From: Candidatus Parcubacteria bacterium
Lineage (GTDB): Bacteria > Patescibacteriota > Minisyncoccia > UBA6257 > HR35
Length of the DNA: 64,000 bases
Direction: 5' to 3'
Assembly: GCA_025999335.1 (NCBI GenBank)
Contig: AP024681.1
Location: forward strand, 3,414 to 67,413
This document shows, piece by piece, positions 7,828 to 42,151 of the stretch; position 1 is the stretch's first letter; every line of letters begins with the position of its first letter. The position numbers and the translations under genes were made by a program. The notes beneath the pieces were generated by a model, which had not been told where the DNA came from, ran no database searches, and saw only the letters and a program-made list of their open reading frames with translations.

Positions 7828-8613
7828 TTAAATAATTAAAAAAAATAAGAATAAAAGACCAAAAACAAGACGATAATAGCCAAAAATAAGAAAATTATTT
7901 TTATTAAGATAATTAATTAGCCAATTTATTGTTAAAAGAGCAAAAACAAATGAAGTTAAAAAAGCAATTGATAAATAAAAAATATTATTAAAATTAAAAA
8001 CCAAGTTTTCAATCCCAACTTTATATAAATCATAAAAGCCTGCAGAAATAATTGTCGGGACTGCCAATAAAAATGAATAAAGAACTGAATCTTTTCTTTG
8101 AAATCTTAAAAATAACATTCCTAAAATAACTGCTCCGGCTCGAGAAACTCCAGGAATAATTGCTAATGATTGAAATATACCAATAAGTAATGCATAAATA
8201 AAAGTTAAATTATCTAAACTATATTGAAGTTGGATTATTTTTTTATTTATCAACAATTCAAAAATTATAAAAATTAATCCTCCTAAAATTAAAGTTAAAA
8301 TTATTAAAAGTTGACTTTCAAAAAAAACATTTTTAATTAATTTATAAAAAATAAGAGAAATTATCGCTGTTGGAATAAAAGAAGCTAATAATTTTGGTAT
8401 TAAGTGTTTATTATCGAGAATGAATTTAAAATAATTAAAAATAACCGCCAAAATAGCTCCTGTTTGAATAAAAATTTCCAAGAATTTATGAAATTCTGTT
8501 TGAGGTATTTTAAGCAAATTAGACACTAAAATCAAATGCGCTGTTGAAGAAATGGGTAAAAATTCAGTTATTCCCTCAATTATTCCTAATAAAAAATATT
8601 TTAACAATTCCAT
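7828..8613 (-). CDS. uppP: Undecaprenyl-diphosphatase (BacA/UppP)
   Basis: N-terminal GIIEGITEFLPISSTAHLIL signature, multi-TM, ...PGVSRAGAVILGMLF second motif. Confidence 0.85.
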   Translation of the reverse strand: MELLKYFLLGIIEGITEFLPISSTAHLILVSNLLKIPQTEFHKFLEIFIQTGAILAVIFNYFKFILDNKHLIPKLLASFIPTAIISLIFYKLIKNVFFESQLLIILTLILGGLIFIIFELLINKKIIQLQYSLDNLTFIYALLIGIFQSLAIIPGVSRAGAVILGMLFLRFQRKDSVLYSFLLAVPTIISAGFYDLYKVGIENLVFNFNNIFYLSIAFLTSFVFALLTINWLINYLNKNNFLIFGYYRLVFGLLFLFFLII

Positions 8614-8657
8614 TTAAAATTATTATTTTTTTAATTAAATCTATTATAATTTAATTA

Positions 8658-11027
8658 ATGAAATATATAAAATTTTTTCAAGAATTATCAAAAGATGATG
8701 TTGGTTTAGTTGGTGGTAAAAATGCTAATTTAGGAGAAATGTATCAGAAATTGATTGGTTTAGGAGTAAGAGTTCCGAGTGGATTTGCGGTGACTGCTGA
8801 AGGTTACGATTATTTTATTCAATTTAATAATTTAGAAAATAAGATAAAAGAAATTCTACAAAATACTAATATTTATGATGTCTCTCAACTTCAAAAAGCA
8901 GGAGAAGAAATAAGAAATTTAATTAAACAGGGCGAGTTTCCAGAAGATTTGAAGAATGAAATTCTAAGTGCTTTTGAAGAGTTGAAAAAAGAATATAGCG
9001 AAAATTTACAAGTAGCCGTAAGAAGTAGCGCTACAGCTGAAGACCTGCCTGATGCTTCATTCGCGGGGCAGCAAGAAACATATTTAAATGTGACTGAAAA
9101 AGATTTATTAGAAAAAGTTAAGTTCTGTTTTGCTTCTTTGTTTACTGATCGAGCAATTTTTTATAGACAAGAAAAAGGATTTGATCATTTTAAAGTAAAA
9201 CTTTCTGTTGGTATTCAAAAAATGGTAAGATCTGACCTAGCAAGTTCGGGAGTGATGTTTACTATTGACGCTGATTCTGGTTTAGATAAAGTAATTGTTG
9301 TTAATGGAGTTTGGGGATTGGGAGAGCTTATTGTTCAAGGAAAAGTTATTCCGGATGAGTGGATTGTTTTTAAAGTTGGTTTAGAAAGAGGCTGTCGAAG
9401 TATTATTAGCAAAAGATTAGGTGAAAAAGTTAAAAAAATTGTTTATGGAGAAAATGGAGGAGTAGCAGAAGTTGAAACCGAACAAAAAGAAAAGGAAATT
9501 TTTTCTTTAAGCGATGATGAAGTGTTAGAACTGGCAAAAATGGGCTATATTATTGAAAAGCATTATAAAAGAGCAATGGATATTGAATGGGCAAAAGATG
9601 GCGTTGATGGTAAGCTTTATATTGTTCAAGCAAGACCAGAAACTGTCCATTCGGCTAAAAAGAAAAATGTTTGGGTTGAGTATAAATTAAAAGCGAGAGG
9701 AGAGATTTTAACAAAAGGTATAGCAATTGGTTCAAAAATTAGTTCAGGAAAAGTTAGAGTGATTAAAGATGTTTCAAAAATAAATGAATTTCAAGAAGGA
9801 GAAATTTTAGTTACAGAAATGACCGATCCAGACTGGGTGCCAATTATGAAAATTGCTAAAGGAATAATTACTGATAAAGGAGGAAGAACTTGCCATGCGG
9901 CTATAGTATCACGAGAACTTGGAATTCCTGCAATTGTTGGCACAGGAAATGCAACAGAAATTTTAAAAACCGGAGATGAAGTGACAATTGATTGCAGTGC
10001 TGGAATTACTGGTTATATTTATAAAGGAATTTTAGATTATGAAGTTATTGAACATAATTTAGAAGAGATTCCTGAAACTAAAATAAAAATTTATGTTAAT
10101 ATTGGACTTCCTGATGAAGCTTGGGAAAGATGGTATTTACCAGTTAAAGGTGTAGGACTTGCTCGTGAAGAATTTATTATTGCTGAAGAAATAAAAATTC
10201 ATCCTAATGCATTGATTGATTATCCAAATTTACCAGAGGACATTAAACAAAAAATAGATGAACTCGTAAAAGATTATGAAGATAAAAAACAATATTTTGT
10301 TGATAAATTAGCTGAAGGGATTGCTAAAATTTGTACTGCTTATTATCCTTATGAAGTAATAGTTAGATTTTCTGATTTTAAGACAAATGAATATGCAAAT
10401 TTAATCGGCGGTGAACTTTATGAGCCTAAAGAAGATAATCCGATGATTGGTTGGCGAGGAGCAAGCAGATATTATCATTCAAAATTTCAAGAAGCTTTTA
10501 AATTAGAAGTTTTAGCAATGAAAAAAGTAAGAGAAGAGATGGGGTTAGATAATTTAGTAATGATGGTGCCGTTTTGTCGAACTCCTGAAGAAGGAAGAAA
10601 AGTTATGGAAATTATTGAAAGTATAATGGGTAAAAGAGAGGAAAAAGGATATAAAGTTTATGTTATGGCAGAAATCCCTTCAAATATTTTGCAAGCCGAA
10701 GAATTTTTAGAGATTTTTGATGGAATGTCAATTGGTTCAAATGATTTAACACAACTCACTTTAGGAATTGATCGTGATAATGAAATTTTACAAGGATTAG
10801 CTGATGAAAGAAATGAATCAGTGAAAAAATTAATTTCTCAAGTAATTAAAATTTGTAAAGAAAAAAATAAATACATTGGTATTTGTGGTCAAGCTCCAAG
10901 TGATTTTCCAGAAATAGTTGAACTTTTAGTTAAAAAAGGAATTGAAAGTATAAGTGTTAATAGTGATGTGGTGATTAAAACAATTGAATTGGTTAAAAAG
11001 TTTGAGGATGAAAATAGAAAATATTAA
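8658..11027 (+). CDS. ppsA: Phosphoenolpyruvate synthase (pyruvate, water dikinase)
   Basis: N-terminal DVGLVGGKNANLGEM, SSATAEDLPDASFAGQQETYLNV, phospho-His domain GGRTCHAAIVSRELGIPAIVG, C-terminal PEP-utilising TIM-barrel. Confidence 0.85.
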   Translation: MKYIKFFQELSKDDVGLVGGKNANLGEMYQKLIGLGVRVPSGFAVTAEGYDYFIQFNNLENKIKEILQNTNIYDVSQLQKAGEEIRNLIKQGEFPEDLKNEILSAFEELKKEYSENLQVAVRSSATAEDLPDASFAGQQETYLNVTEKDLLEKVKFCFASLFTDRAIFYRQEKGFDHFKVKLSVGIQKMVRSDLASSGVMFTIDADSGLDKVIVVNGVWGLGELIVQGKVIPDEWIVFKVGLERGCRSIISKRLGEKVKKIVYGENGGVAEVETEQKEKEIFSLSDDEVLELAKMGYIIEKHYKRAMDIEWAKDGVDGKLYIVQARPETVHSAKKKNVWVEYKLKARGEILTKGIAIGSKISSGKVRVIKDVSKINEFQEGEILVTEMTDPDWVPIMKIAKGIITDKGGRTCHAAIVSRELGIPAIVGTGNATEILKTGDEVTIDCSAGITGYIYKGILDYEVIEHNLEEIPETKIKIYVNIGLPDEAWERWYLPVKGVGLAREEFIIAEEIKIHPNALIDYPNLPEDIKQKIDELVKDYEDKKQYFVDKLAEGIAKICTAYYPYEVIVRFSDFKTNEYANLIGGELYEPKEDNPMIGWRGASRYYHSKFQEAFKLEVLAMKKVREEMGLDNLVMMVPFCRTPEEGRKVMEIIESIMGKREEKGYKVYVMAEIPSNILQAEEFLEIFDGMSIGSNDLTQLTLGIDRDNEILQGLADERNESVKKLISQVIKICKEKNKYIGICGQAPSDFPEIVELLVKKGIESISVNSDVVIKTIELVKKFEDENRKY

Positions 11028-12195
11028 AGCGAATAAAATTCTTGATTCAAGAGGGGAGTGGACAGTTGAGGTTGAAATTGAAAGTGAAAACAAAGGAAAA
11101 GCTTCAATTCCTTCAGGAAAAAGTTTGGGATCTCATGAGGCAGTTTGTTTAGATTGTGATTTAATTGAAAAGAATTTACCAGAATTTTTAAAAGAAGTTA
11201 AGAATTTTGATTTTAAGTCTTCTCAAGAATTTGATAATTTTTTAATTGAAAGAGCAGGAAAGAATAAAGAAAAATTAGGAGGGAATTTTACTTTAGGATG
11301 TTCAATTGCATTTGCAAAAGTATTAGCTAAAAAAGAAGGATTAGAACTTTATGAATATTTGGAGAAAGAATATACGCAGACAACCGCAAACTATACGCAG
11401 GCAGCCGCAGAGAGTTATAATAATAGTCCGCGGGAGTTTGCGTTAAGTCTGCAGGAATCCGCGCCTACTCCAAAATTAATTATCAATATTATTGGTGGTG
11501 GGGTTCATTCTTTTAATAATTTAGATTTTCAGGAGTGTTGGCTAGTAAGCAAACAAAGTTTTTCCGAAAAATTGATTGCTGAAATTTTAAGCGTAATTAA
11601 TATTTTAGAAAATAAACTCTCAAAACCATTAGGAAGAAATGATGAGGGAGCGTTTTGTACAAATTTTAATGACAATTATGAACCTTTTATTTATTTAAAT
11701 CAATTTAAAGAAAATTTTGAGCTTGGCGCGGATATTGCTGCTAATCAAATTAAAAAAGACATAAATTGGCAAGAAATTTATCATCAATTAAAAAAATTAA
11801 ATGTTACTTATTTAGAAGATCCTTACAAAGAAGATGAATTTGAATATTTTGCGAACTTAAGAAAAGAAGGATTTAAAGTTATCGGGGACGATTTAACAAC
11901 AACTAATACAGAAAGATTAAAAACTGCTTTAGAAAAAAATTCTCTTGATGGAGTAATTGTTAAACCAAATCAAATTGGAACAATTAAAGAAACTTTTGAT
12001 TTTATAAAACTAGCAAAAGAAAATAATTTATTTACAATTTTTTCTCATCGCAGCGGAGAAACTAATGATAATTGGATTATTGATTTAGGAATTTCTTTCA
12101 ATGCTGATTATTTTAAAATTGGCGTGCCATTACAAGGCGAAAGAATTGCTAAATGGAACAGATTAAAAGAAATTTTTGATAAAAATGATAAGTAA
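11008..12195 (+). CDS. eno: Enolase (divergent), with a ~30-codon in-frame insert
   Basis: MKIENIKANKILDSRGEWTVEVEIE N-terminus, VKPNQIGTIKETFDFIKLA...SHRSGETNDNWIIDLGI C-terminal signature. Start chosen at the internal ATG 11008 (overlaps the ppsA stop by 20 nt) rather than the longer ORF start 10984. Confidence 0.8.
   Translation: MKIENIKANKILDSRGEWTVEVEIESENKGKASIPSGKSLGSHEAVCLDCDLIEKNLPEFLKEVKNFDFKSSQEFDNFLIERAGKNKEKLGGNFTLGCSIAFAKVLAKKEGLELYEYLEKEYTQTTANYTQAAAESYNNSPREFALSLQESAPTPKLIINIIGGGVHSFNNLDFQECWLVSKQSFSEKLIAEILSVINILENKLSKPLGRNDEGAFCTNFNDNYEPFIYLNQFKENFELGADIAANQIKKDINWQEIYHQLKKLNVTYLEDPYKEDEFEYFANLRKEGFKVIGDDLTTTNTERLKTALEKNSLDGVIVKPNQIGTIKETFDFIKLAKENNLFTIFSHRSGETNDNWIIDLGISFNADYFKIGVPLQGERIAKWNRLKEIFDKNDK
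11374..11463. repeat. ~90-nt GC-enriched element inserted in frame in eno; divergent member of the GCGAAC-type family
   Basis: Encodes TQTTANYTQAAAESYNNSPREFALSLQESA between the enolase LYEYL and PTPKLIINIIGGG segments. Shares the ANY..NN.REF peptide core and TATAATAG..CGCG nucleotide core with the pcm and rpe inserts. Internal ccgcgg palindrome and gcagac/gtctgc inverted repeat. Confidence 0.5.
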
Positions 12196-12379
12196 TTTCT
12201 TAATTTTATTAGGTGTTGTTTTAATAATTTTTGGTTTGATTTTAAAGTTTAATTTTAAACTACCTGGTGATATTTTAATTCAAAAAGAAAATTTTACCTT
12301 TTATTTTCCGATTGTAACTTCGATTGTTGTAAGCATTCTTTTAACTATAATAATCTCATTAATAAAAAAAATTAAATAA
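12176..12379 (+). CDS. DUF2905-family small membrane protein
   Basis: 67 aa, two TM segments, central LPGDILIQKENFTFYFPIVTSI motif. Confidence 0.5.
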   Translation: MIKMISNFLILLGVVLIIFGLILKFNFKLPGDILIQKENFTFYFPIVTSIVVSILLTIIISLIKKIK

Positions 12380-12496
12380 ACCGAACTTGACTGTTTAAAA
12401 TAAAATTTTATAAAAAGATAAATAAAAATAATAAGATATTTATTTTTAGGATAATTCTTTTTATGTTATAATATTAAAAATAAATTTAAAAAACAT

Positions 12497-12567
12497 CGCG
12501 GGGTGGTGGAGCAGGACCACGGAGGTCTCATAAGCCTCAGACGCAGGTGCAAATCCTGCCCCCGCAA
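12497..12567 (+). tRNA. tRNA-Met (anticodon CAT), initiator-like
   Basis: Cloverleaf folded by hand: acceptor CGCGGGG/CCCCGCA with a C1xA72 mismatch, U8, D-stem GTGG/CCAC, anticodon loop CTCATAA, G29-C41 and G30-C40, T-stem GCAGG/CCTGC, discriminator A; CCA not encoded. Confidence 0.8.
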
Positions 12568-12591
12568 CATTTTAGAGTAATAAATTCCGTA

Positions 12592-13173
12592 ATGCGCATT
12601 AGTATTTTTTTATTAACAACATTACTTTTGTTTTTTATTTTTGCGTTAATTCTATCGCTAATGGGTCAACCGTTAGCATACAAATCTCAAGGCAAATATC
12701 ATATAAAAATTTGGCATGGAGATATATATAGCGATCAAAACTCTCAACAATTAGTAGATTGGTATTCTTTTACTCATATTACCCATGGTGTATTTTTTTA
12801 TTTTTTGTTGTGGTTAATTAAAAAAATAATAAAATTTAAACAAAAATCACTATTATTACTGCTTTTAATAGCATTAATTTTAGAGATGGCTTGGGAAATT
12901 TTTGAAAATACCGATTTTGTTATAAACCGTTATCGTGAATCAACAATTTCTTTAGGCTATTACGGTGATAGTGTAATTAATTCTGTTTTTGATGTTTTGT
13001 TTATGGTTGTAGGATTTTTAATTGCTGCTTTTATGCCGGTATGGTTTACAATATTATTTATCATCGTATTAGAATTATTTCTACTTTATATGATACGCGA
13101 CAATTTGATTTTAAATTTGATTATGTTAATTTTCCCTAGTCAAGCCATTCTTCAATGGCAAATGCAAAAATAA
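12592..13173 (+). CDS. hypothetical polytopic membrane protein
   Basis: The ORF-track start at 12547 (GTG) would overlap the tRNA; first ATG at 12592 (MRISIFLLTTLLLFF...); multiple hydrophobic segments. Confidence 0.4.
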   Translation: MRISIFLLTTLLLFFIFALILSLMGQPLAYKSQGKYHIKIWHGDIYSDQNSQQLVDWYSFTHITHGVFFYFLLWLIKKIIKFKQKSLLLLLLIALILEMAWEIFENTDFVINRYRESTISLGYYGDSVINSVFDVLFMVVGFLIAAFMPVWFTILFIIVLELFLLYMIRDNLILNLIMLIFPSQAILQWQMQK

Positions 13174-13233
13174 TTTAATCGTCTTAAATGAATTAAATCA
13201 AATAAAACAAAAAATAAATTCACAAATTTATCT

Positions 13234-14250
13234 ATGTTAAAAGATATTTTGAAAAATATTTTAGATCAAGGAAAAAAGGATATATTAATGTGTCGGACTT
13301 TAGAAGAGTTAGAAAATATAAAAATTAAATATTTAAGCAGAAAAAGCGAATTGATGTCTCTTTCAAAAAATTTCTCTCAATTAAAACCAAATGAAAAAAA
13401 AGAAATAGGTAATTTATTTAATCTTGTAAAAAATACCTTAATAAAAACATACGAAGAGCAAAAACAGAGATTAGATAAAATATCAATCAATTTCGACCCC
13501 GAACATCCCGGTAAACAAATAAATATTGGCAGGGAACATTTGTTAACCAATAGTCTCGTAAAAATTAGAAACATTTTTATTAATTTAGGCTTTAATATCT
13601 ATGACTACCATCAAATAGTTAATGAAAAAGAAAATTTTGATTATTTAAACATACCTCGCAACCATCCTGCGCGAGACTTGTGGGATACCTTATGGATTGA
13701 AAATAAAAATAAAAAAAGTGATTACTTACTAAGAACCCATACGACTGCTTTTCAGCATTATATTCTCACAAAATATCGCCCTCCTTTAAGATTTGCAACC
13801 ATAGGCAAAGTTTTTAGATACGAAGCAACTGATAAAAGTCATGATTTTGAATTTTATCAAATTGATGCTTTATCTCTTAGCGAAACAACCAATCTTCAAA
13901 ATTTAAAATATACCATAGAAAAATTTTTTATTAATTTTTTTCATAAAGATATAAAAATTCGTTTTCGTCCATCATATTTTCCTTTTGTTGAACCTGGTCT
14001 AGAAGTAGATATCAACTGTATATTTTGTAATAATAAAAAATGCGCTACTTGTAAATTTAGTGGATGGATTGAGGTTGCCGGCGCCGGTATGATTCACCCA
14101 TCAGTATTAGCGCAAGCCAAAATAGATTATAAAAAATATCGAGGTTTTGCTTTCGGCATAGGGATTGACAGATTAATTATGCTAAAGCATAACATTAACG
14201 ATATACGTATATTACATTCAAGTGATTTAAGGTTCATTAATCAATTTTAA
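13234..14250 (+). CDS. pheS: Phenylalanine--tRNA ligase alpha subunit
   Basis: Class II motifs: FRPSYFPFVEPGLEVDI, GWIEVAGAGMIHPSVL, GFAFGIGIDRL. Confidence 0.9.
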   Translation: MLKDILKNILDQGKKDILMCRTLEELENIKIKYLSRKSELMSLSKNFSQLKPNEKKEIGNLFNLVKNTLIKTYEEQKQRLDKISINFDPEHPGKQINIGREHLLTNSLVKIRNIFINLGFNIYDYHQIVNEKENFDYLNIPRNHPARDLWDTLWIENKNKKSDYLLRTHTTAFQHYILTKYRPPLRFATIGKVFRYEATDKSHDFEFYQIDALSLSETTNLQNLKYTIEKFFINFFHKDIKIRFRPSYFPFVEPGLEVDINCIFCNNKKCATCKFSGWIEVAGAGMIHPSVLAQAKIDYKKYRGFAFGIGIDRLIMLKHNINDIRILHSSDLRFINQF

Positions 14251-14264
14251 ATTGTAAAATTATA

Positions 14265-16247
14265 ATGAAATTTAGAATTCACGACTTACAAAATTATTTA
14301 ACTAAAAAAATTAACGGTGAAAAGATAGCGCAAACATTAACTTTAAAAAGCTTTGAAACAACATACAAAAATAATGTTCTTGATATTGATATTTTACCTA
14401 ATCGTTTTAGCGATTGCGCTTCTTTTATTGGTCTTGCTAAAGAAATATCTGCTGTTTCCGATAATAATGTTGTTTTACCTAAAATTAATTTTCTAGAAAC
14501 AAAACAAAAAATAAATAAAAACATTAAAGTAATTAATCGTTTACAATCAAATATTGTTCCTTATTATTTCTATCGAATTATTTTAAATATTAATAATAAA
14601 AAATCTGAAACAAAACTAGCCGATCTTCTCAACTTTTATGGTTTTAATAACATCAATTATTTAGTAGATCTTAGTAATTTTGTAATGTTAGAATGTGGCG
14701 CGCCTTTGCATATTTTTGATTTAGATAAAATTGATGAATTTATTGAAGTAAGAACTGCTTATCAAGGTGAAAGATTTTTATCATTTGACGATAAAGAATA
14801 TATTCTTCAAGGAAATGAAATAGTTATCGCTGACGCAAAAGATATTTTAGCTTTAGCTGGTATTAAAGGTGGCAAAAAAGCAGCTGTAACTTTGCAAACA
14901 AAAAATATTTTCATTGAAGGAGCTGTTTTCAATCCGGCATCTATTTATTCAACCTCTAAGCAATTAAATATTAAAACCGAAGCAAGTTTTCGTTTTGAAA
15001 AAGGCATAGCGCCAACTTCTGTTATTTATTCTTTAGATAGATTAACAACTCTTATATATAACAATTTAGGTGGTGATATTTTAATAAATAAAAATGCACA
15101 AATAAAATTTAATGATAAAATTATAAATTTTAATTTTGAGGAAATTTATAATCTATCCGGATGCAAAATTGAATTTAATGAATTTCAAAATATTATAAAA
15201 AAATTAGGTATAACTATTAAACGTAATCACCGTAATAAAATATTTCAATTAATTATACCTAATGAAAGATTGGATATTAATAATTCATACGATATTGTTG
15301 AAGAAATAATTAGAATATATGGATTGGATAAAATTACGCCTAAATTTGAATGTTTCGAAAATAATATCTCGCCTAAACAAAATTTTGAATTTATAGATTT
15401 TCTAAGAAATTTCACTATAAAGAGTTCGTTTACAGAAAGTTTTAGCTATAATCTCATCTCAGAAAAAGATTTATCTATATTTAAATCATTACTTAACGGC
15501 AAACCGATAAAAATTTATAATCCTCTTAGCGAGAATTATTCTTTCTTTCAATTTTCGTTAATCCCCAATTTAGTTAAAGCCATTATTTCTAATCAAAAAA
15601 ATTTCACCGATATTAAATTATTTAATATAGAGAAAATTGCCTTTTGGCAAAATAACAAAATTATTGAAAAATATTCTTATGCAATTGCTATTGGTAAAAA
15701 AAATATTGATGATATATTTTTAGAATTAAAAGGATTCTTAAACTTGTTAATGAATGAACTAAAAATAGATTATTTATTAAGTATTCAAGATAATGAAAAT
15801 TTTTATTTTGCCATTATGCATAATAAAAAAAATATTGGAACTTTTGGTTTTTTAAATAAATATGTATTAAATCTCATTGATAGCGATATTAATATAGGCT
15901 TTGTTGAATTAGATTTAGATTTAATTTATGATTTAAGTAAAAAAGAGAAAATATTTAATCCCTTACCTCAATTTCCAAGTATCATTAGAGATTTATCATT
16001 TTTTATTAATAGAAAAATCAGCGTTCATCAAATAGAAAAAATATTATTATCACATAAAGTTGATTATTTAAAAAAGATAGAACTTAAAGATATTTACTTA
16101 CCATTAGATAATAAAGATACTAAATCAGTAACTTATCGATTTTATTTTCAAAGTGATGAAAGAACTTTAACCGATGAAGAAATAAATCAATGTTTAGTTA
16201 AAATTATAAATATCTTAAAAAATCAATTAAATATTGAAATACGTTAA
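14265..16247 (+). CDS. pheT: Phenylalanine--tRNA ligase beta subunit (short form)
   Basis: Immediately downstream of pheS; B3/4-type region and C-terminal FNPLPQFPSIIRDLSF / anticodon-binding-like end. Confidence 0.8.
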   Translation: MKFRIHDLQNYLTKKINGEKIAQTLTLKSFETTYKNNVLDIDILPNRFSDCASFIGLAKEISAVSDNNVVLPKINFLETKQKINKNIKVINRLQSNIVPYYFYRIILNINNKKSETKLADLLNFYGFNNINYLVDLSNFVMLECGAPLHIFDLDKIDEFIEVRTAYQGERFLSFDDKEYILQGNEIVIADAKDILALAGIKGGKKAAVTLQTKNIFIEGAVFNPASIYSTSKQLNIKTEASFRFEKGIAPTSVIYSLDRLTTLIYNNLGGDILINKNAQIKFNDKIINFNFEEIYNLSGCKIEFNEFQNIIKKLGITIKRNHRNKIFQLIIPNERLDINNSYDIVEEIIRIYGLDKITPKFECFENNISPKQNFEFIDFLRNFTIKSSFTESFSYNLISEKDLSIFKSLLNGKPIKIYNPLSENYSFFQFSLIPNLVKAIISNQKNFTDIKLFNIEKIAFWQNNKIIEKYSYAIAIGKKNIDDIFLELKGFLNLLMNELKIDYLLSIQDNENFYFAIMHNKKNIGTFGFLNKYVLNLIDSDINIGFVELDLDLIYDLSKKEKIFNPLPQFPSIIRDLSFFINRKISVHQIEKILLSHKVDYLKKIELKDIYLPLDNKDTKSVTYRFYFQSDERTLTDEEINQCLVKIINILKNQLNIEIR

Positions 16248-25941: not shown

Positions 25942-26727
25942 ATGGAGCAACAAGATATTAAAAGTATTATTTTAAATATTTATGCCGGCGTTGGCGGTAA
26001 GGATGCTGAAGATTGGGTAGGAATGTTAAAAAGAATGTACGAAAAATTTTTTCAAAGAGTAAAATTTAAATATTTTCTTGTCGATGAAAGCAAAAATGAA
26101 TTTAATGGTTACAAATATGTAAGCTTACAAGTAATTGACAATAATGCTTACAATCTTTTGAAAGATGAAAAAGGTGTTCACCGATTAGTGCGCATTTCTC
26201 CTTTCTCAGCAAAAAAATTGCGTCACACAAGTTTCGCTTATGTTGAAGTTCTACCTCTAATAGAAAAACCGAAATTCGTACTTAATAATAATGACATCGT
26301 TGTTCAAACATATCGAGCTGGTGGTAAAGGCGGACAAAATGTCAATAAAGTAGAAACAGCAGTGCGTCTTATATACAAACCCCTTAATTTAGTAGTTTCT
26401 TGTCAGAATGAAAGATCTCAATTTAAAAATAAAGAATTAGCGTTAAAAATACTCTATTCTAAAATTGTTGATATTTTAAATGAAAAACATAAAAATAAAA
26501 TTGACGAGCTAAAAGGCGCAAAAATAGAAATTGGCTGGGGTAATCAAACAAGATCTTATATTTTAGATCCTTACAAATTAGTCAAAGATTTAAAACATAA
26601 TAAAGAAACGAATAAAGTTAATGATGTTTTAGATGGTTATCTAGAATTAATCAATCCAACCATTGAGACATTTATTAATCAATTTAAAACTAAACAACAA
26701 AATTATTCGACGCACTACATTGGATAG
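25942..26727 (+). CDS. prfB: Peptide chain release factor 2 homolog lacking N-terminal domain 1
   Basis: SPF stop-codon recognition tripeptide ([16 protein letters not shown]), GGQ motif ([19 protein letters not shown]); starts at the equivalent of E. coli RF2 residue ~115 ([13 protein letters not shown]...); no upstream frameshift ORF. Confidence 0.7.
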
Positions 26728-28382: not shown

Positions 28383-30110
28383 ATGATAAACATAATAAAA
28401 TCAAACAAATTTACTTTCTCTTCTCTTTCTTTTGTAATTTTATTAATTATTTTCTTTATTCCCTCAACAAGCAATTCTCAACAATCTCAATATCAAGGTA
28501 AAATAGGTTCTTATCCTATTGTTATTGAAGCTTTTAATCTTTTAGATGATAATCAAACCATAAAAGGAAGATATAGGTATCAGAATAAAGATGTGTGGTT
28601 AATCTTAAAAGGAAAGATTGACTTAAAAAATAATTCTGTGTCTATAGATGAATACGATGAAAATAATGTTAAGACTGGAATATTTACGGGAGAATATGAT
28701 AAGAAATCAAACTCTATAAAACTAACAAGTTGGTCTAATCCTAAGAAAAAAACATCATTAAAAGTATATTTACCTTCTATAAATCTTATAAAAATTAGCA
28801 AACAAGAAAAAATATCAGGAGTAACAAATTTTCTTAAAACTGAAAAAATTTATACTATACCTAATGGTTATAAGTTAGTTGAGATAAAAATTTTAACAAG
28901 TTCAAAAAGATATGCATTATTATTAAAAACTCCAGAAGGAAAATATACAGTTGTCTTAGACGGCAAAGAAAGTAAGAAGTATGATGGTTTATATGGTTTC
29001 ACTTTCTCTCCTGATGGTCAACATTTTGCTTATATTGTCGGAGAAGATTGTATGTATTATAATGAATGCTCAAAATATTTTGTAGTCTTAGATGAAAAAG
29101 AAGGGAAAAAATATGATTATATTGATAAAAATAACCTCACTTTCTCTCCCAATGGTCAACATTTTGCTTATATCGCTAGAAAAGAAGGCAAAAGTTTTGT
29201 AATTTTAGACGGAAAAAGAAAAAAAAGTTATGATGATATTAATAACTTAACTTTCTCTCCTGATGGTCAACATTTTGCTTATATAGCTAGGGAAAAAGGT
29301 AAATATGCTGTGGTTTTAAACGGAAAAGAAAGCGAAAAATATGATATTGCTTATAATCTTATTTTCTCTCCTGATGGTCAACATTTTGCTTATGTCGCTA
29401 GAAAAGAAGGCAAAAGTTTTGTAATTTTAGACGGAAAAAGAAAAAAAAGTTATGATGATATTAATAACTTAACTTTCTCTCCTGATAGTCAACATTTTGC
29501 TTATGTCGCTGGAATCGGCAAAGATTGTGTATATATCCTTAACCTTTATGAATATCAATGTTTAAAATATTTTGTAGTTCTAGATGGTAAAGAAGGTGAA
29601 AAATATGATGGTATTTATAATTTTATCTTTTCCCCCAATGGTCAACATATTGCTTATATAGCTGGAGAAAATTGCAACATATATCTTAGACCTGAATACT
29701 GTTCTAAATATTTTATTGTCTTAGATAACAAAAAAAGCAGCAAAAAATATGAGTATGGTGACATAGATGAATCTAGTCTCAAATTTTCTCCTAACAGTCA
29801 ACATTTCGCTTATATAGCTAGAGAAAAACGTAAATATGCTGTGGTTTTAAACGGAAAAGAAAACGAAAAATATGATAGTGCTTATAATCTTATTTTCTCT
29901 CCTGATAGTCAACATTTTGCTTATATAGCTGGAAAAGATTGTATGTATTATAATGATAATGAATGTTCAAAATATTTTATAGTTTTAGATAACAAAGAAA
30001 GTGAGGAATATGATAAAATATATCAGTTTAATTTTCTTGAAAATAATAAAAACTTAATTTACTTTGTTTTAAAGAATAATGAGATTTGGAGAATTGTTGA
30101 AGAGTTGTGA
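28383..30110 (+). CDS. Secreted PD40-like (TolB C-terminal type) beta-propeller repeat protein, paralog 1
   Basis: Signal peptide; ~13 tandem ~40-aa repeats of the form KYD..Y...FSPDGQHFAYIA..GK..VVLDGKE. Confidence 0.6.
   Translation: MINIIKSNKFTFSSLSFVILLIIFFIPSTSNSQQSQYQGKIGSYPIVIEAFNLLDDNQTIKGRYRYQNKDVWLILKGKIDLKNNSVSIDEYDENNVKTGIFTGEYDKKSNSIKLTSWSNPKKKTSLKVYLPSINLIKISKQEKISGVTNFLKTEKIYTIPNGYKLVEIKILTSSKRYALLLKTPEGKYTVVLDGKESKKYDGLYGFTFSPDGQHFAYIVGEDCMYYNECSKYFVVLDEKEGKKYDYIDKNNLTFSPNGQHFAYIARKEGKSFVILDGKRKKSYDDINNLTFSPDGQHFAYIAREKGKYAVVLNGKESEKYDIAYNLIFSPDGQHFAYVARKEGKSFVILDGKRKKSYDDINNLTFSPDSQHFAYVAGIGKDCVYILNLYEYQCLKYFVVLDGKEGEKYDGIYNFIFSPNGQHIAYIAGENCNIYLRPEYCSKYFIVLDNKKSSKKYEYGDIDESSLKFSPNSQHFAYIAREKRKYAVVLNGKENEKYDSAYNLIFSPDSQHFAYIAGKDCMYYNDNECSKYFIVLDNKESEEYDKIYQFNFLENNKNLIYFVLKNNEIWRIVEEL
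28486..29050. repeat. ~565-bp near-identical direct repeat (copy 1) shared with 30233-30797: 5' modules of the two PD40 paralogs
   Basis: Nucleotide strings identical over long stretches when the two gene starts are compared by eye; the same 73-aa antisense ORFs appear at 28580..28801 and 30337..30558. Confidence 0.8.
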
Positions 30111-30142
30111 TTTTTTTCATATATTTTTTATAATAATAAAAA

Positions 30143-32426
30143 ATGACATCAAGAAATTATACTCTTAGCTTGTTTACTCTCCTTCTTGTTATTATTGTTT
30201 CTATTTTCTTTTCTTTTCCGCAAAATACTTACTCTCAACAATCTCAATATCAAGGTAAAATAGGTTCTTATCCTATTGTTATTGAAGCTTTTAATCTTTT
30301 AGATGATAATCAAACCATAGAAGGAAGATATAGGTATCAGAATAAAGATGTGTGGTTAATCTTAAAAGGAAAGATTGACTTAAAAAATAATTCTGTGTCT
30401 ATAGATGAATACGATGAAAATAATGTTAAGACTGGAATATTTACGGGAGAATATGATAAGAAATCAAACTCTATAAAACTAACAAGTTGGTCTAATCCTA
30501 AGAAAAAAACATCATTAAAAGTATATTTACCTTCTATAAATCTTATAAAAATTAGCAAACAAGAAAAAATATCAGGAGTAACAAATTTTCTTAAAACTGA
30601 AAAAATTTATACTATACCTAATGGTTATAATTTAGTTGAGATAAAAATTTTAACAAGTTCAAAAAGATATGCATTATTATTAAAAACTCCAGAAGGAAAA
30701 TATACAGTTGTCTTAGACGGCAAAGAAAGTAAGAAGTATGATGGTTTATATGGTTTCACTTTCTCTCCTGATGGTCAACATTTTGCTTATATTGTCGGAG
30801 AAAATTGTAAAAAACAATATTCATATGATGAATGCTCAAAATATTTTGTAGTTTTAGATGAAAAAGAAGGGGAAAAATATGATGGTATTTATAATTTTAT
30901 CTTTTCCCCTAACAGTCAACATTTTGCTTATTTAGCTAAAGAAGATTGTAAAAAACAATATTCATATGATGAATGCTCAAAATATTTTGTAGTTTTAGAT
31001 AATAAAGAGGGAGAAAAATATAATTCTATTAGTAACCTCACTTTCTCTCCCAATAGTCAACATTTTATTTATAGCGCCATAAAAGAAGGAAAAAAAATTG
31101 TAATTCTCGATGGTAAAGAAGGAGAAAAATATGATTTTATTATTGACCCTATTTTTTCTCCTAATGGAGAACATCTCGCTTATATAGCCGGAAAAGATGA
31201 AAAATATTTTATTGTACTCGATGGAAAAGAAGGTAAAAAGTATGAATACGTTTCTAACTTTGGTTTCTCTCCTAATAGCCAACATCTTTTTTATATAGTT
31301 GGAGAACATTGTTTTATGAATCGTAAAGATTGCCCAGTTTCTTTTGTGGTCTTAGACAAAAAAGAAGGTAAGAAGTATGATAATATCTATAATATTATTT
31401 TCTCTCCTGATAGTCAACATTTTGCTTATATAGCTAGTAAAAAAGGAAAAGAAACTGTGGTTCTCGATGGGAAAGAAGGCAAAAAGTATGACGAAGTTCA
31501 CTTTTATACTTTCACTTTCTCTTCTAACAATCAAAATTTTGTTTATAGAGCTAAAAAAGAAGAAAAATACATTGTGGTTTTTAATGAAAAAGAAGGCAAG
31601 GAATATGAACAAGTTTATGATTTAATTTTATCTCCAGATTATAAACATTTTGCTTATATAGCCGGAGAAGATTGCAAAGAAACAGATCAATGTTCAAAAT
31701 ATTTCGTAGTGTTAGACGGAAAAGAAGAAAAAAGATATAATTATGTTTATAATTTAATTTTATCTCCAGATTATAAACATTTTGCTTATGCTATCAAGGA
31801 AAAAGAAGGATATTTCGTTATCTTAGATGGGGAAAAAAAGTAATAAGTATGATTATGTCTATAAGCTCACTTTCTCTCCTGATAGTCAACATTTTGCTTA
31901 TATAGCTAAAAAAGAAGGCAAAGATATTGTAGTTTTAGATGGTAAAGAAAGTAAAAAATATGACAATGTTTATGATTTTATATTTTCTCCTGATGGTCAA
32001 CATTTTGCTTATATAGCTAGTAAAGAAGGGAAAAATGTTGTAGTTTTAGATGGGGAAGAAGGAGAGCAATATGATAGTATTTATGATTTTGCATTCTCTC
32101 CTGATAGTAGACGTTTTATTTATAGAGCTCAGAAAGAAGAAAAAGAAATTGTAGTTATAAATAAAAAAGAAGGCAAAAAATATGATTATATTAACGAAGG
32201 TAGCTTCACTTTCTCTCCTGATGGTCAACATTTTGCTTATATAGCTGGAAAAGATTGTATATATTATAATGATAATGAATGTTCAAAATATTTTATAGTT
32301 TTAGATAACAAAGAAAGTGAGGAATATGATAAAATATATCAGTTTAATTTTCTTGAAAATAATAAAATCTTAATTTACTTTGCTTTAAAGAATAATGAGA
32401 TTTGGAGAATTGTTGAAGAGTTGTGA
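30143..32426 (+). pseudogene. Secreted PD40-like beta-propeller repeat protein, paralog 2, split by a frameshift at an A7 tract (31833-31839) into ORFs 30143..31843 and 31827..32426
   Basis: Signal peptide and N-terminal ~220 aa nearly identical to paralog 1; last ~60 aa nearly identical to the paralog 1 C-terminus (DC.YYNDNECSKYFIVLDNKESEEYDKIYQFNFLENNK.LIYF.LKNNEIWRIVEEL); removing one A from the A7 run restores the repeat unit ...VILDGEKKSNKYDYVYKLTFSPD. Confidence 0.55.
30233..30797. repeat. ~565-bp near-identical direct repeat (copy 2)
   Basis: See copy 1; a second shorter repeat pair (~170 bp) joins 29930-30110 with 32250-32430. Confidence 0.8.
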
Positions 32427-32513
32427 TTTTTTTATATATTTTTGTATAATATTATATTAATATTAAAATTTATTATTAGTTTTAAAAATTAATTAATATA
32501 AACATATAAAAAA

Positions 32514-36149: not shown

Positions 36150-36330
36150 TTTGTTAATTTTCTTACTAACTAAACAAAATATATTATATCATACCATAAA
36201 TTAATCTATAAAATTTTTAAAAAGTAATTAAAATAAAACAAAATTAATTGATAATTTAAATAACTTTATTTTAGATAATCTAATTTATATAGTTTATATA
36301 GTATAATTAAAATAATTATAGTAAAAAAAT

Positions 36331-39699: not shown

Positions 39700-42151
39700 C
39701 TATTTTTATATTATATTATCTATTGCTACTATCATTAGCTTTATTCTTATTATATTTACTGTCTTACATTTAAAAAAATATCGTCAAAAAGTACAATTAA
39801 AATTAGCTTTTAGTTATGTCTTACTCCTTATAGAATTACCTAAAAGCATAATTTTAGCACAACAACAAAGCAGCAACCCTGACCCACGATTAAGAATAAT
39901 TGAAGAAATTACTACTTTTGAAAATTTTTTATCTCATTTTAGTAAAATTAAAAATCCCATTGTTTTTGAAATTGCAACTCCTCACTATGGAGAAGAAATT
40001 TTTTTCTATGCGGCGATGCATAGAAAAGATGTTGATTATTTTAATAAAGTTTTAAAAGGAGCTTACCCCGGAGCTGAAACAAAAATTATTGAAACTGACT
40101 ACAATATTTTTAATCCTAATGGAGTTAGTTTGCTATCTATCGTAACTCAAAAAAATCATCATTTTTTACCAATTAGAACATATAAAAGTATTGCTCTTGG
40201 AAATATTGATCCCTTTGACGCTTTCCTTTCGGCTTTTTCAAAATTAGACAAAGAAGGCGAAGGTTTAGCTTATCAACTTATCATAAAACCGGCACCTCAA
40301 AAAATTCATAAAAAAATTTTTCAAGTTATTAAAAAGTTAAGAGAAGGAGAAAATTTAGAAGAAGCCTTAAAAATTCATTTCTTTTATAACATAATTTCTC
40401 TTTTCCAAAATATATTTAAAGAATTTTTCGTTAGCGAGAAAAAAAAGGAAGAGGAAAAACAAGAAAAAACAAAACCAAAACCAGCTGAAGAAACTGCTAT
40501 AAAACAACTAGAAGAAAAAAATGCTAAAAGTTTATTTCATGTCAATGTTCGATTAGTATGTTCTACCTACAATCACCAAACAGCAAATAATATCTTAACG
40601 GCTTTAGAAGGACCGTTTAATCAATTTGTCAATCCTGGATTCAATGAGTTTCTTATTCAACGTAAGCACAAAAACAAACTTTTAAAAAGTATTTATGATT
40701 TTTCTTTTAGAATCTTTCAAAAAAAAGAAACGATGCTTTTAAATACTGAAGAGATTGCTTCTATTTTTCACTTCCCTATTTCTTATACTAAAAATCCGTT
40801 AATACATTGGCTATTACTAAGATCAGCGCCACCTCCTATTAATTTACCAACAGAAGGAGTCATTTTAGGCGTAAACAACTATCAAGGGAATGAATCATTG
40901 ATTAGAATTACTAAAAATGACCGACGAAGACATATCTATGTTATCGGTCAAACAGGTACTGGTAAAACAACTTTGCTCAAAAATATTATTGAACAGGATA
41001 TTAGTAACGGCGATGGTGTTTGTTTTTTAGATCCTCACGGTGATGTAGCTGAAGAAATTTTAGGCTTAATTCCTCCTGATAAAGCTGAAAATGTGATTTA
41101 TTTTAATCCTGGCGACACTCGTAAACCTTTAGGGTTAAATATTCTTGAATATAATCCTCAAAATCCTGAAGATAAAACTTTTATTATTAATACCTTAATT
41201 GAAATTATTGATAAGTTATATAATTTACAAGTTACTGGAGGTCCGATGTTCGAACAATATTTAAGAAATGCTTTATTATTAATAATGGATAATCCAGAAT
41301 GGGGACATACTTTATTAGATGTCTCTCGAGTTTTTGTTGACGATGATTTTCGTGATAGATTACTCAATGAATGTAAAAACTATCCAGTAATAGAATTTTG
41401 GCGCAAACAAGCAGAGAGAATTACTTCAGGAGATTTCTCGTTAGAAAATATGACAACTTGGATAACCTCTAAACTTAATCCTTTCATAACCAATGACTTT
41501 GTTAGACCAATAATCGCTCAATCTAAATCATCTCTTAATTTTAGAGAAATTATGGATAATCAAAAAATTTTAATAGTTAATCTAGCTAAAGGAAAATTAG
41601 GTGAAACAAGTGCTTATTTATTAGGAATGGTGCTAGTTACTAAAATATTATTAGCTGCTTTGTCAAGAATCGACACGCCTGAACAACAACGAAAAGATTT
41701 CTATCTTTTTATCGACGAGTTTCAAAATTTTGCTTTTAAAAGTGTTAGTACAATTTTATCCGAAGCACGTAAATATAGACTTTCATTAACTTTAGCCCAT
41801 CAGTTTATTAAACAAGTGCCTGAAGAAATTATTGCGGCAGTTATAGGTAATGTAGGTACTATTATTTCTTTTCGTATAGGTGTTGAAGATGCTGAACTTT
41901 TAGAAAGACAATTCTCGCCTGTATTTAGTAAAGCTGATCTTGTGAATATACCTAATTATAATGCTTATATTAAATATCTTATTAACGGAGTTGTTACCAG
42001 TGCTTTTAATATTCAAACCTTAAAACCAAAACCTGAAAACAAAAAATTAAGCGCAATGATAATGGAGATGTCTATGTTAAAATATGGTAAACCCCGCGAA
42101 CTTATTGAAGAAGAAATAGCTAAAAAGTATCAAAACGATTTTGACTTTTAA
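39689..42151 (+). CDS. TraG/TraD/VirD4-family (type IV coupling-protein-like) membrane ATPase
   Basis: N-terminal TM helices, Walker A HIYVIGQTGTGKTT followed by FLDPHGD, Walker B LFIDEFQNF, 820 aa. Confidence 0.6.
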   Translation: MNSSYFYIILSIATIISFILIIFTVLHLKKYRQKVQLKLAFSYVLLLIELPKSIILAQQQSSNPDPRLRIIEEITTFENFLSHFSKIKNPIVFEIATPHYGEEIFFYAAMHRKDVDYFNKVLKGAYPGAETKIIETDYNIFNPNGVSLLSIVTQKNHHFLPIRTYKSIALGNIDPFDAFLSAFSKLDKEGEGLAYQLIIKPAPQKIHKKIFQVIKKLREGENLEEALKIHFFYNIISLFQNIFKEFFVSEKKKEEEKQEKTKPKPAEETAIKQLEEKNAKSLFHVNVRLVCSTYNHQTANNILTALEGPFNQFVNPGFNEFLIQRKHKNKLLKSIYDFSFRIFQKKETMLLNTEEIASIFHFPISYTKNPLIHWLLLRSAPPPINLPTEGVILGVNNYQGNESLIRITKNDRRRHIYVIGQTGTGKTTLLKNIIEQDISNGDGVCFLDPHGDVAEEILGLIPPDKAENVIYFNPGDTRKPLGLNILEYNPQNPEDKTFIINTLIEIIDKLYNLQVTGGPMFEQYLRNALLLIMDNPEWGHTLLDVSRVFVDDDFRDRLLNECKNYPVIEFWRKQAERITSGDFSLENMTTWITSKLNPFITNDFVRPIIAQSKSSLNFREIMDNQKILIVNLAKGKLGETSAYLLGMVLVTKILLAALSRIDTPEQQRKDFYLFIDEFQNFAFKSVSTILSEARKYRLSLTLAHQFIKQVPEEIIAAVIGNVGTIISFRIGVEDAELLERQFSPVFSKADLVNIPNYNAYIKYLINGVVTSAFNIQTLKPKPENKKLSAMIMEMSMLKYGKPRELIEEEIAKKYQNDFDF

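Follow-up and report, generated by a model that had tools for sequence, protein, structure and literature searches.

Gene conversion between bacterial paralogues is a well-known process, exemplified by the duplicated tuf genes of Salmonella and by tandem surface-protein paralogues. A second group of described systems is formed by the cassette loci of antigenic variation: Neisseria pilE/pilS, Borrelia vlsE, Anaplasma msp2 and the MgPa repeats of Mycoplasma. Here we describe a locus comparable to both, found in a 64-kb stretch of DNA from a Candidatus Parcubacteria bacterium (contig AP024681.1, positions 3,414 to 67,413; hereafter the window, in whose numbering all coordinates are given). Parcubacteria and the other members of the candidate phyla radiation (CPR) are uncultivated, have reduced genomes and are thought to live attached to other cells. 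Open reading frame (ORF) calling places two adjacent genes, gene 1 and gene 2, on the same (+) strand between ftsX and ndk, and their products are predicted to be secreted PD40-like beta-propeller proteins. We propose that they are probably old tandem paralogues in which gene conversion, through homologous recombination, has recently made the termini alike.

The locus resembles known cases of concerted evolution, such as Salmonella tuf, in its bounded near-identity that includes silent sites, in the divergence found elsewhere and in repeats that would also permit deletion by unequal crossover. It differs in that the termini alone are homogenised while the intervening repeat array is diverged, and in its host, an uncultivated Parcubacteria. 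Just as in cassette loci, conserved flanks bracket the variable segments of a surface or secreted protein, with recombination doing the work. Unlike in cassette loci, there is no expression site with silent cassettes but two full genes with their own signal peptides, and the exchanged part is the conserved flank, not the variable core. A literature search on gene conversion in Patescibacteria, and on the accessions of the metagenome-assembled genomes (MAGs) and sequencing runs concerned, found nothing relevant. The pair would be a new example of textbook concerted evolution, of modest interest and opening no new question; at the same time, it would be a clean, long-read-resolved case of homologous recombination reshaping a gene pair in a 0.68-Mb genome.

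Gene 1 is composed, in this order, of a signal peptide, an eight-strand beta-barrel N-terminal domain (N-domain), a linker, a degenerate repeat unit (unit 0), eight PD40-like units and a C-terminal cap. Gene 2, when corrected for the frameshift described below, has the same architecture, with unit 0, 13 units and the cap. Along the strand, the parts that matter for the comparison are the following:

28383–30110, strand +: gene 1, 575 aa (ORF; PD40 match of 70.3 bits)
28383–28475, strand +: signal-peptide codons of gene 1, MINIIKSNKFTFSSLSFVILLIIFFIPSTSNS, absent from the shared block (63% identity to the gene 2 counterpart)
28476–29052, strand +: 5' shared block, copy 1 (577 nt, 3 mismatches to copy 2)
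29053–29893, strand +: divergent core of gene 1, units A1-A8 in part (unit alignment)
29894–30135, strand +: 3' shared block, copy 1 (97.5% over 242 nt)
30143–32426, strand +: gene 2, 13 units, split in this assembly (ORFs 30143-31843, 566 aa, and 31827-32426, 199 aa, +1 frame)
30143–30232, strand +: signal-peptide codons of gene 2, MTSRNYTLSLFTLLLVIIVSIFFSFPQNTYS (ORF and segment comparison)
30233–30809, strand +: 5' shared block, copy 2 (ungapped comparison, offset 1757 nt)
30810–32209, strand +: divergent core of gene 2, units B1-B13 in part (unit alignment)
32210–32451, strand +: 3' shared block, copy 2 (offset 2316 nt)

The two copies of the 5' block are 99.5% identical, with mismatches only at 28563, 28874 and 29046 and a longest exact run of 310 nt. 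The block starts at codon 32, precisely where the mature protein is predicted to begin, and runs from this mature N-terminus through the N-domain, the linker and unit 0 into unit 1, of which it includes the first 18 codons. An original prediction, made from the letters of the window alone, had described ~565 bp of almost identical 5' sequence including the signal peptide; the block is confirmed at 577 nt with 3 mismatches, whereas the signal-peptide codons, 63% identical, fall outside it. At the other end, 29894-30117 equals 32210-32433 but for 4 mismatches, and a single indel extends the likeness by ~18 nt to 242 nt. This 3' block, predicted at ~170 bp and in fact ~224-242 bp long, reaches from the last full unit over the C-terminal cap and the stop codon to ~25 nt beyond; its coding part is 98.2% identical over 217 nt.

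No synonymous difference separates the copies in the ~800 nt of the blocks: all 7 differences (3 + 4) are nonsynonymous. Neutral change in an AT-rich gene could account for them, and they are too few for further inference. The surroundings look entirely different. The signal-peptide codons of the two genes are 63% identical (52 ± 3% when shuffled), the 60 nt upstream of them 51%, the next 60 nt past the 3' block again 51%, and the cores, in global alignment, ~49%. With 49-63% identity outside and near-identity inside, the blocks are far beyond chance and sharply bounded.

Between the blocks, the core units of gene 1 and gene 2 share 50-81% of their nucleotides, mostly 55-80%, and none exceeds 81%. 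Higher values are reached by two between-gene pairs and no others, A8/B13 (96%), which lies inside the 3' block, and A1/B1 (87%), which lies partly inside the 5' block. Gene 1 has 8 full units and gene 2 has 13, each 37-52 aa long, in agreement with the predicted cores of different unit numbers and variants. Exact repeats inside each core are visible as recent intragenic events. In gene 1, a duplication with a period of 222 nt is seen in the exact 92-nt match of 29173-29264 to 29395-29486 and in the 95% identity between units A2 and A4; in gene 2, 56 nt are repeated exactly (30804-30859 and 30945-31000). In addition, the motif FSPDGQHFAYIA is conserved among many units as exact matches of 28-41 nt.

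Core units at 50-81% identity, together with the diverged signal peptides and flanks, indicate that the duplication is old. Recent duplication of the whole gene was rejected, as it cannot yield old cores, signal peptides and flanks together with sharp-edged young termini; purifying selection was rejected as well, as it cannot keep silent sites identical. Gene conversion, which the original prediction had put forward, is upheld by the bounded tracts, the absence of synonymous differences and the diverged surroundings, and by a mosaic patch and a chimeric gene in related samples. The genome contains a third member of the family, P0034 (KatS3mg097_656); its identity is just 47%, which implies that homogenisation is confined to the adjacent pair.

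We suggest the following course of events. Non-reciprocal homologous recombination would have overwritten both gene ends, one copy from the other, in converted tracts of ~0.58 kb and ~0.24 kb (range 0.2-0.6 kb) between adjacent direct repeats. Judging by the sequence pattern, which shows their extents and edges, the putative tracts would end inwards at 29052 and 29894, in the first and the last repeat unit, where between-gene homology decays; their outer edges would be the boundary of signal peptide and mature protein at 28476 and a point ~25 nt beyond the stop codon. The exact matches of FSPDGQHFAYIA may have provided the microhomology where exchanges could start or stop. The differing unit number and order imply that the cores were not converted as wholes; they would rather have changed as units were duplicated or lost, and through small exchanges for which the same motif would have served as a seed. 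Finally, the same direct repeats would allow unequal crossover, with a 1757-bp deletion leaving one chimeric gene.

A gene with exactly the structure of this product is found in a near-identical MAG, GCA_041640215.1 (contig JBEQAS010000004.1, L001). Against the window, only 3 substitutions are found in 9.3 kb of upstream flank and 10 in 9.9 kb of downstream flank, and between ftsX and ndk the MAG carries a single gene of 761 aa, equal to the window minus 1757 bp. The chimera combines the signal peptide of gene 1 with the gene 2 alleles at 3 of the 3 discriminating sites, the gene 2 core and a tract of three G at the frameshift position; its structure matches that expected of unequal crossover between the 5' blocks. 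The gene 2 core differs between window and MAG by one single-nucleotide polymorphism and one indel in ~2.2 kb. As a separate observation, 6 of the 10 downstream substitutions between the window and this MAG cluster in 80 nt (window 39974-40054), all of them T in the MAG, inside a gene for a DUF87/TrwB-like ATPase; either recombination or a local error of assembly could have produced the cluster.

A second kind of variation is found in run SRR27869038 (L004):

28673–28740, strand +: mosaic patch in SRR27869038 (68 nt, 20 substitutions, ~10 amino-acid changes)

The contig in question is identical to the window across 6.1 kb upstream and the signal peptide of gene 1, then deviates within 28476-28783 by 3 scattered substitutions and the patch. 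Over this interval, gene 1 of the window differs from its own paralogue at 1 of 308 positions and from L004 at 23 of 308, the latter being one k=31 contig and possibly a mosaic. Such a patch beside a perfectly identical flank excludes point mutation and leaves either recombination import or the unconverted state of one paralogue. Even if L004 is a mosaic, it shows that a variant of the N-terminal block foreign to the window exists in a population with identical flanks. Another contig, L006 from SRR27730028, ends at 28672, directly before the patch, which suggests that both variants of the block occur in that sample. Taken together, these samples hint at a locus that is recombinationally active in related populations.

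Several points weigh against the homogenisation of old paralogues as we propose it. For the words 'recent' and 'ongoing', the basis is a set of three or four contigs of other samples. L004 comes from a k=31 short-read graph, which may have merged the two paralogues of its strain into a mosaic instead of giving a clean orthologue. The single gene of the JBEQAS MAG may be a real deletion; a collapse of the assembly across the 577-nt repeat would explain it with equal or greater likelihood. One record submitted alongside it is a NODE contig in the style of SPAdes, taken from a SemiBin bin, and the MAG is thus probably a short-read assembly. Short-read MAGs can misreport such loci as one chimeric gene, a warning that extends beyond this pair. 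In addition, the pattern may not be general, as no identical blocks are present among the clustered propeller genes of a related MAG (L012), nor are near-identical tandem blocks in any of the related loci L012-L021; the absence from L012 is qualified by the fact that short-read assemblies would rarely recover identical blocks.

The same sequence could have arisen in the reverse order, by a recent segmental duplication after which the core and the signal peptide of one copy were swapped for a diverged allele. The swap would have proceeded by homologous recombination with DNA of another strain, the conserved termini serving as anchors. Family termini are indeed conserved across populations while cores vary, with N-domains and C-terminal caps common to L017, L018 and L020 but cores that differ among them, and L004 illustrates that foreign-looking patches can enter the locus. 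Nevertheless, this scenario takes two further events or more, as the core and, separately, the signal peptide together with the 122-nt spacer would each have to be replaced; none of the gene 1 units is close to a unit of gene 2, and no donor is known. To tell its outcome from that of conversion would take an outgroup, and we consider it unlikely. We keep to conversion between old paralogues as the best explanation.

Gene 2 is interrupted in the window by an extra G at 31829-31832, within the sequence 31826-31841, GATGGGGAAAAAAAGT:

31829–31839, strand +: frameshift site GGGGAAAAAAA, G4A7 (MAG JBEQAS010000004.1 has G3A7 and an intact gene)

With one G removed, gene 2 encodes a product of 760 aa with unbroken repeat periodicity (...VILDGKKSNKYDYVYKLTFSPD...). 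The predicted pair of adjacent genes of ~570-760 aa is accordingly right in its adjacency and in the 575 aa of gene 1, whereas gene 2 is split by the extra G. The split appears to be present in the GenBank record as well: its numbering, BCX15139-BCX15143, implies three coding sequences between FtsX and NDK. Across the ~19 kb that the window and the JBEQAS MAG have in common, the G4/G3 difference is the sole indel; it switches the frame of gene 2, in a short tract and in a comparison of two assemblies. Tracts of at least seven A/T or at least four G/C occur at 3.2 per kb in the propeller genes and the whole window alike, so that no enrichment suggestive of phase variation is seen. Runs of three or four G are too short for efficient slippage.

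Phase variation was set aside as unsupported, the tract being short and homopolymer density average. Programmed frameshifting was set aside too: an A AAA AAG heptamer has the phase required for a -1 slip, but the ORF that follows is read in the +1 frame, and for a +1 slip on the A-run no stimulatory feature seems apparent. Most simply, the break in gene 2 is a plain inactivating mutation or a residual consensus error rather than a switch.

Secreted and surface proteins of CPR bacteria are a likely interface with their hosts and phages, and one may ask whether the pair is a recombination-based variation module of a CPR episymbiont that varies a host- or phage-facing surface propeller. This is quite unlikely in our estimate. 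If it were true, the N-domain barrel and the ring-closing first and last blades would be homogenised handles for swapping, fusing and deleting arrays of blades, the frameshift in the G/A tract would toggle one copy, and the system would have produced the chimeric gene of JBEQAS, the mosaic N-domain patch and the difference between G3 and G4.

A still stricter version, a dedicated system in which the blocks are handles for programmed cassette exchange or antigenic variation and the G/A tract is an on/off switch, is very unlikely. It would account for blocks that flank variable repeat cores, for G4 (off) in one assembly and G3 (on) in another, for the single chimeric gene of one MAG and for an N-domain patch made mostly of amino-acid changes. 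However, searches of the 64-kb window with tblastn and blastn found no additional copy of a block, the N-domain or the repeats and no silent cassette; both genes are complete expression units, each with its start and signal peptide; and between assemblies the core of gene 2 hardly changes. On these same grounds, the cassette-like diversification of the original prediction is not supported. No core swapping and no sign of rapid core shuffling were seen between the window and the MAG, the homopolymer data above speak against a switch, and the neighbours are housekeeping genes. Neither a reverse transcriptase nor a template repeat was seen, and the substitutions of the patch are not adenine-specific. 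A target of a diversity-generating retroelement was a candidate in its own right and was rejected, given the lack of an extra block copy in the window, a patch in L004 that alters all four bases and the housekeeping neighbours.

The two-gene arrangement itself appears to be real. Logan contigs are built on a k=31 graph. Those bearing FtsX end at 28505, and those bearing NDK begin at 32404, both in DRR290133, which matches the window at 100% and is probably the same data set, and in SRR27730017, which is ~0.4% diverged and independent. With block edges at 28476 and 32433, these breaks are exactly where a k=31 graph should branch if two upstream sequences converge at 28476 and two downstream ones diverge at 32434. 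The source MAG was assembled with metaFlye from PacBio HiFi reads with an N50 of 10.5 kb (PMC9671151). An assembly artefact, in which two strain alleles of one gene were stitched in tandem or paralogues were homogenised by polishing, is thus very improbable: the metagenomic source and a near-identical MAG with one gene only would favour it, but the spacer and second signal peptide (30111-30232, 122 nt) are unique and must separate a 3' block from a 5' block, the k=31 breaks in two read sets show both junction types, the ~10-kb HiFi reads are longer than the 4-kb locus, and a single indel in 19 kb against the MAG implies high consensus quality. Elsewhere in the window, the strain of SRR27730017 (L008) has a 25-nt intergenic deletion relative to 36268-36292, upstream of a HEAT-repeat/nucleotidyltransferase gene.

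We now turn to the proteins. PD40 (PF07676) is matched above its cut-off in all three ORFs, with 70.3, 38.7 and 50.1 bits against 20.9. Matches to NCBIfam are sub-threshold only: TmcD with 136 against a cut-off of 440, and TolB (TIGR02800) with 28.7 against 343. An identity as TolB was rejected on this score, on the neighbourhood of ftsEX and ndk and on the N-domain, which is a different, eight-strand barrel. The AlphaFold2 (AF2) model of gene 1 (pLDDT 85.8, pTM 0.75) has a helix at residues 12-24, corresponding to the signal peptide, then a beta-rich N-domain and, from residue 152, ~10 groups of 3-4 strands. In the PDB, Foldseek matched this model to beta-propellers only, with a probability of 1.0 but TM-scores of at most 0.45, the best being ~0.4 to the nine-bladed eIF3b. 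Low TM-scores with propeller-only matches fit a propeller with an unusual blade number.

The units fall into two classes: 12 are short (37-39 aa) and cysteine-free, while 9 are long (44-52 aa) and have exactly two cysteines each, placed in an inserted loop. Such two-cysteine loops would fit an extracellular, disulfide-bonded protein. With the PD40/WD40-like propellers of TolB and S9 peptidases, the units have in common the FSPDG..xAY motif, the match to PF07676, four-stranded blades in the model and Foldseek hits to propellers alone; they differ in the greater number of predicted blades (~10 and ~15 versus 6-8), the short units of 37 aa, the Cys-Cys loop inserts of some units and the N-terminal domain. 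Altogether, PF07676, the AF2 model and Foldseek support the original assignment as secreted PD40-like beta-propellers, with a Sec signal peptide and a predicted ~10 blades for gene 1 or ~15 for gene 2. From architecture alone, their role is probably that of an extracellular binding protein of an episymbiotic bacterium with a reduced genome.

The N-domain comprises the first ~105 residues after the signal peptide (28476-28790 in gene 1, 30233-30547 in gene 2). It has no sequence match in Pfam, NCBIfam or the PDB. Modelled alone with AF2, it forms an eight-strand up-and-down barrel that weakly resembles avidins, the haemophore HphA, GID4 and lipocalins (E ~0.1, TM 0.44-0.55). An exhaustive search of 1.84 billion representative proteins yielded 21 relatives; a word-index search with the N-domain gave no match, nor did a scan of genome contigs with a single N-domain as the query. 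In the relatives, the domain is followed by PD40-like repeats (P0122, L012 at 9893-11221) or by YVQINxKxYGPYD repeats (P0121, P0124, L017-L020). The locus thereby defines an unannotated N-terminal beta-barrel domain joined to two different repeat arrays. A homologue search with gene 1 retrieved 1612 repeat-only matches, the best at 38% identity, among which there was neither a close relative nor a match to itself; look-ups of the exact products of gene 1, the 199-aa ORF and P0034 also gave no match.

In the related MAG represented by L012 (JBEQAR010000005.1), three or four genes of the propeller family are clustered at 8485-14399. One of them is split by an in-frame TAA at 11219-11221 into 442 and 287 aa, and in another a signal-peptide ORF at 8485-8631 is out of frame with its repeat body at 8882-9787. 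Coverage there is ~3x, and the broken ORFs could be errors or real decay.

The surroundings of the pair are those of a housekeeping region, with gatB, a release factor gene, ftsE and ftsX upstream and ndk, rpmF, nusB, rnc and cca downstream. G+C content is ~26% across the window, and the propeller locus is compositionally like the rest. Exact protein matches identify the flanking FtsX as BCX15139.1 (KatS3mg097_031) and NDK as BCX15143.1; the host is MAG KatS3mg097, with a genome of 0.68 Mb and a contig of 680,436 bp.

Both copies of the 3' block carry a promoter-like match, TTGTGA-N18-TATAAT, over the stop codon (30105-30134 and 32421-32450). The match after gene 1 ends 8 nt before the ATG of gene 2, and the one after gene 2 lies 64 nt before ndk. 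In a promoter and terminator scan, promoter-like matches were no commoner at the locus than in shuffled sequence, and no terminator was found there. Further upstream, the release factor ORF at 25942-26727 (PCRF and RF-1 domains) begins 22 nt past the end of gatB and encodes 261 aa, apparently lacking the usual N-terminal domain of ~100 aa; the same call is present in the independent MAG.

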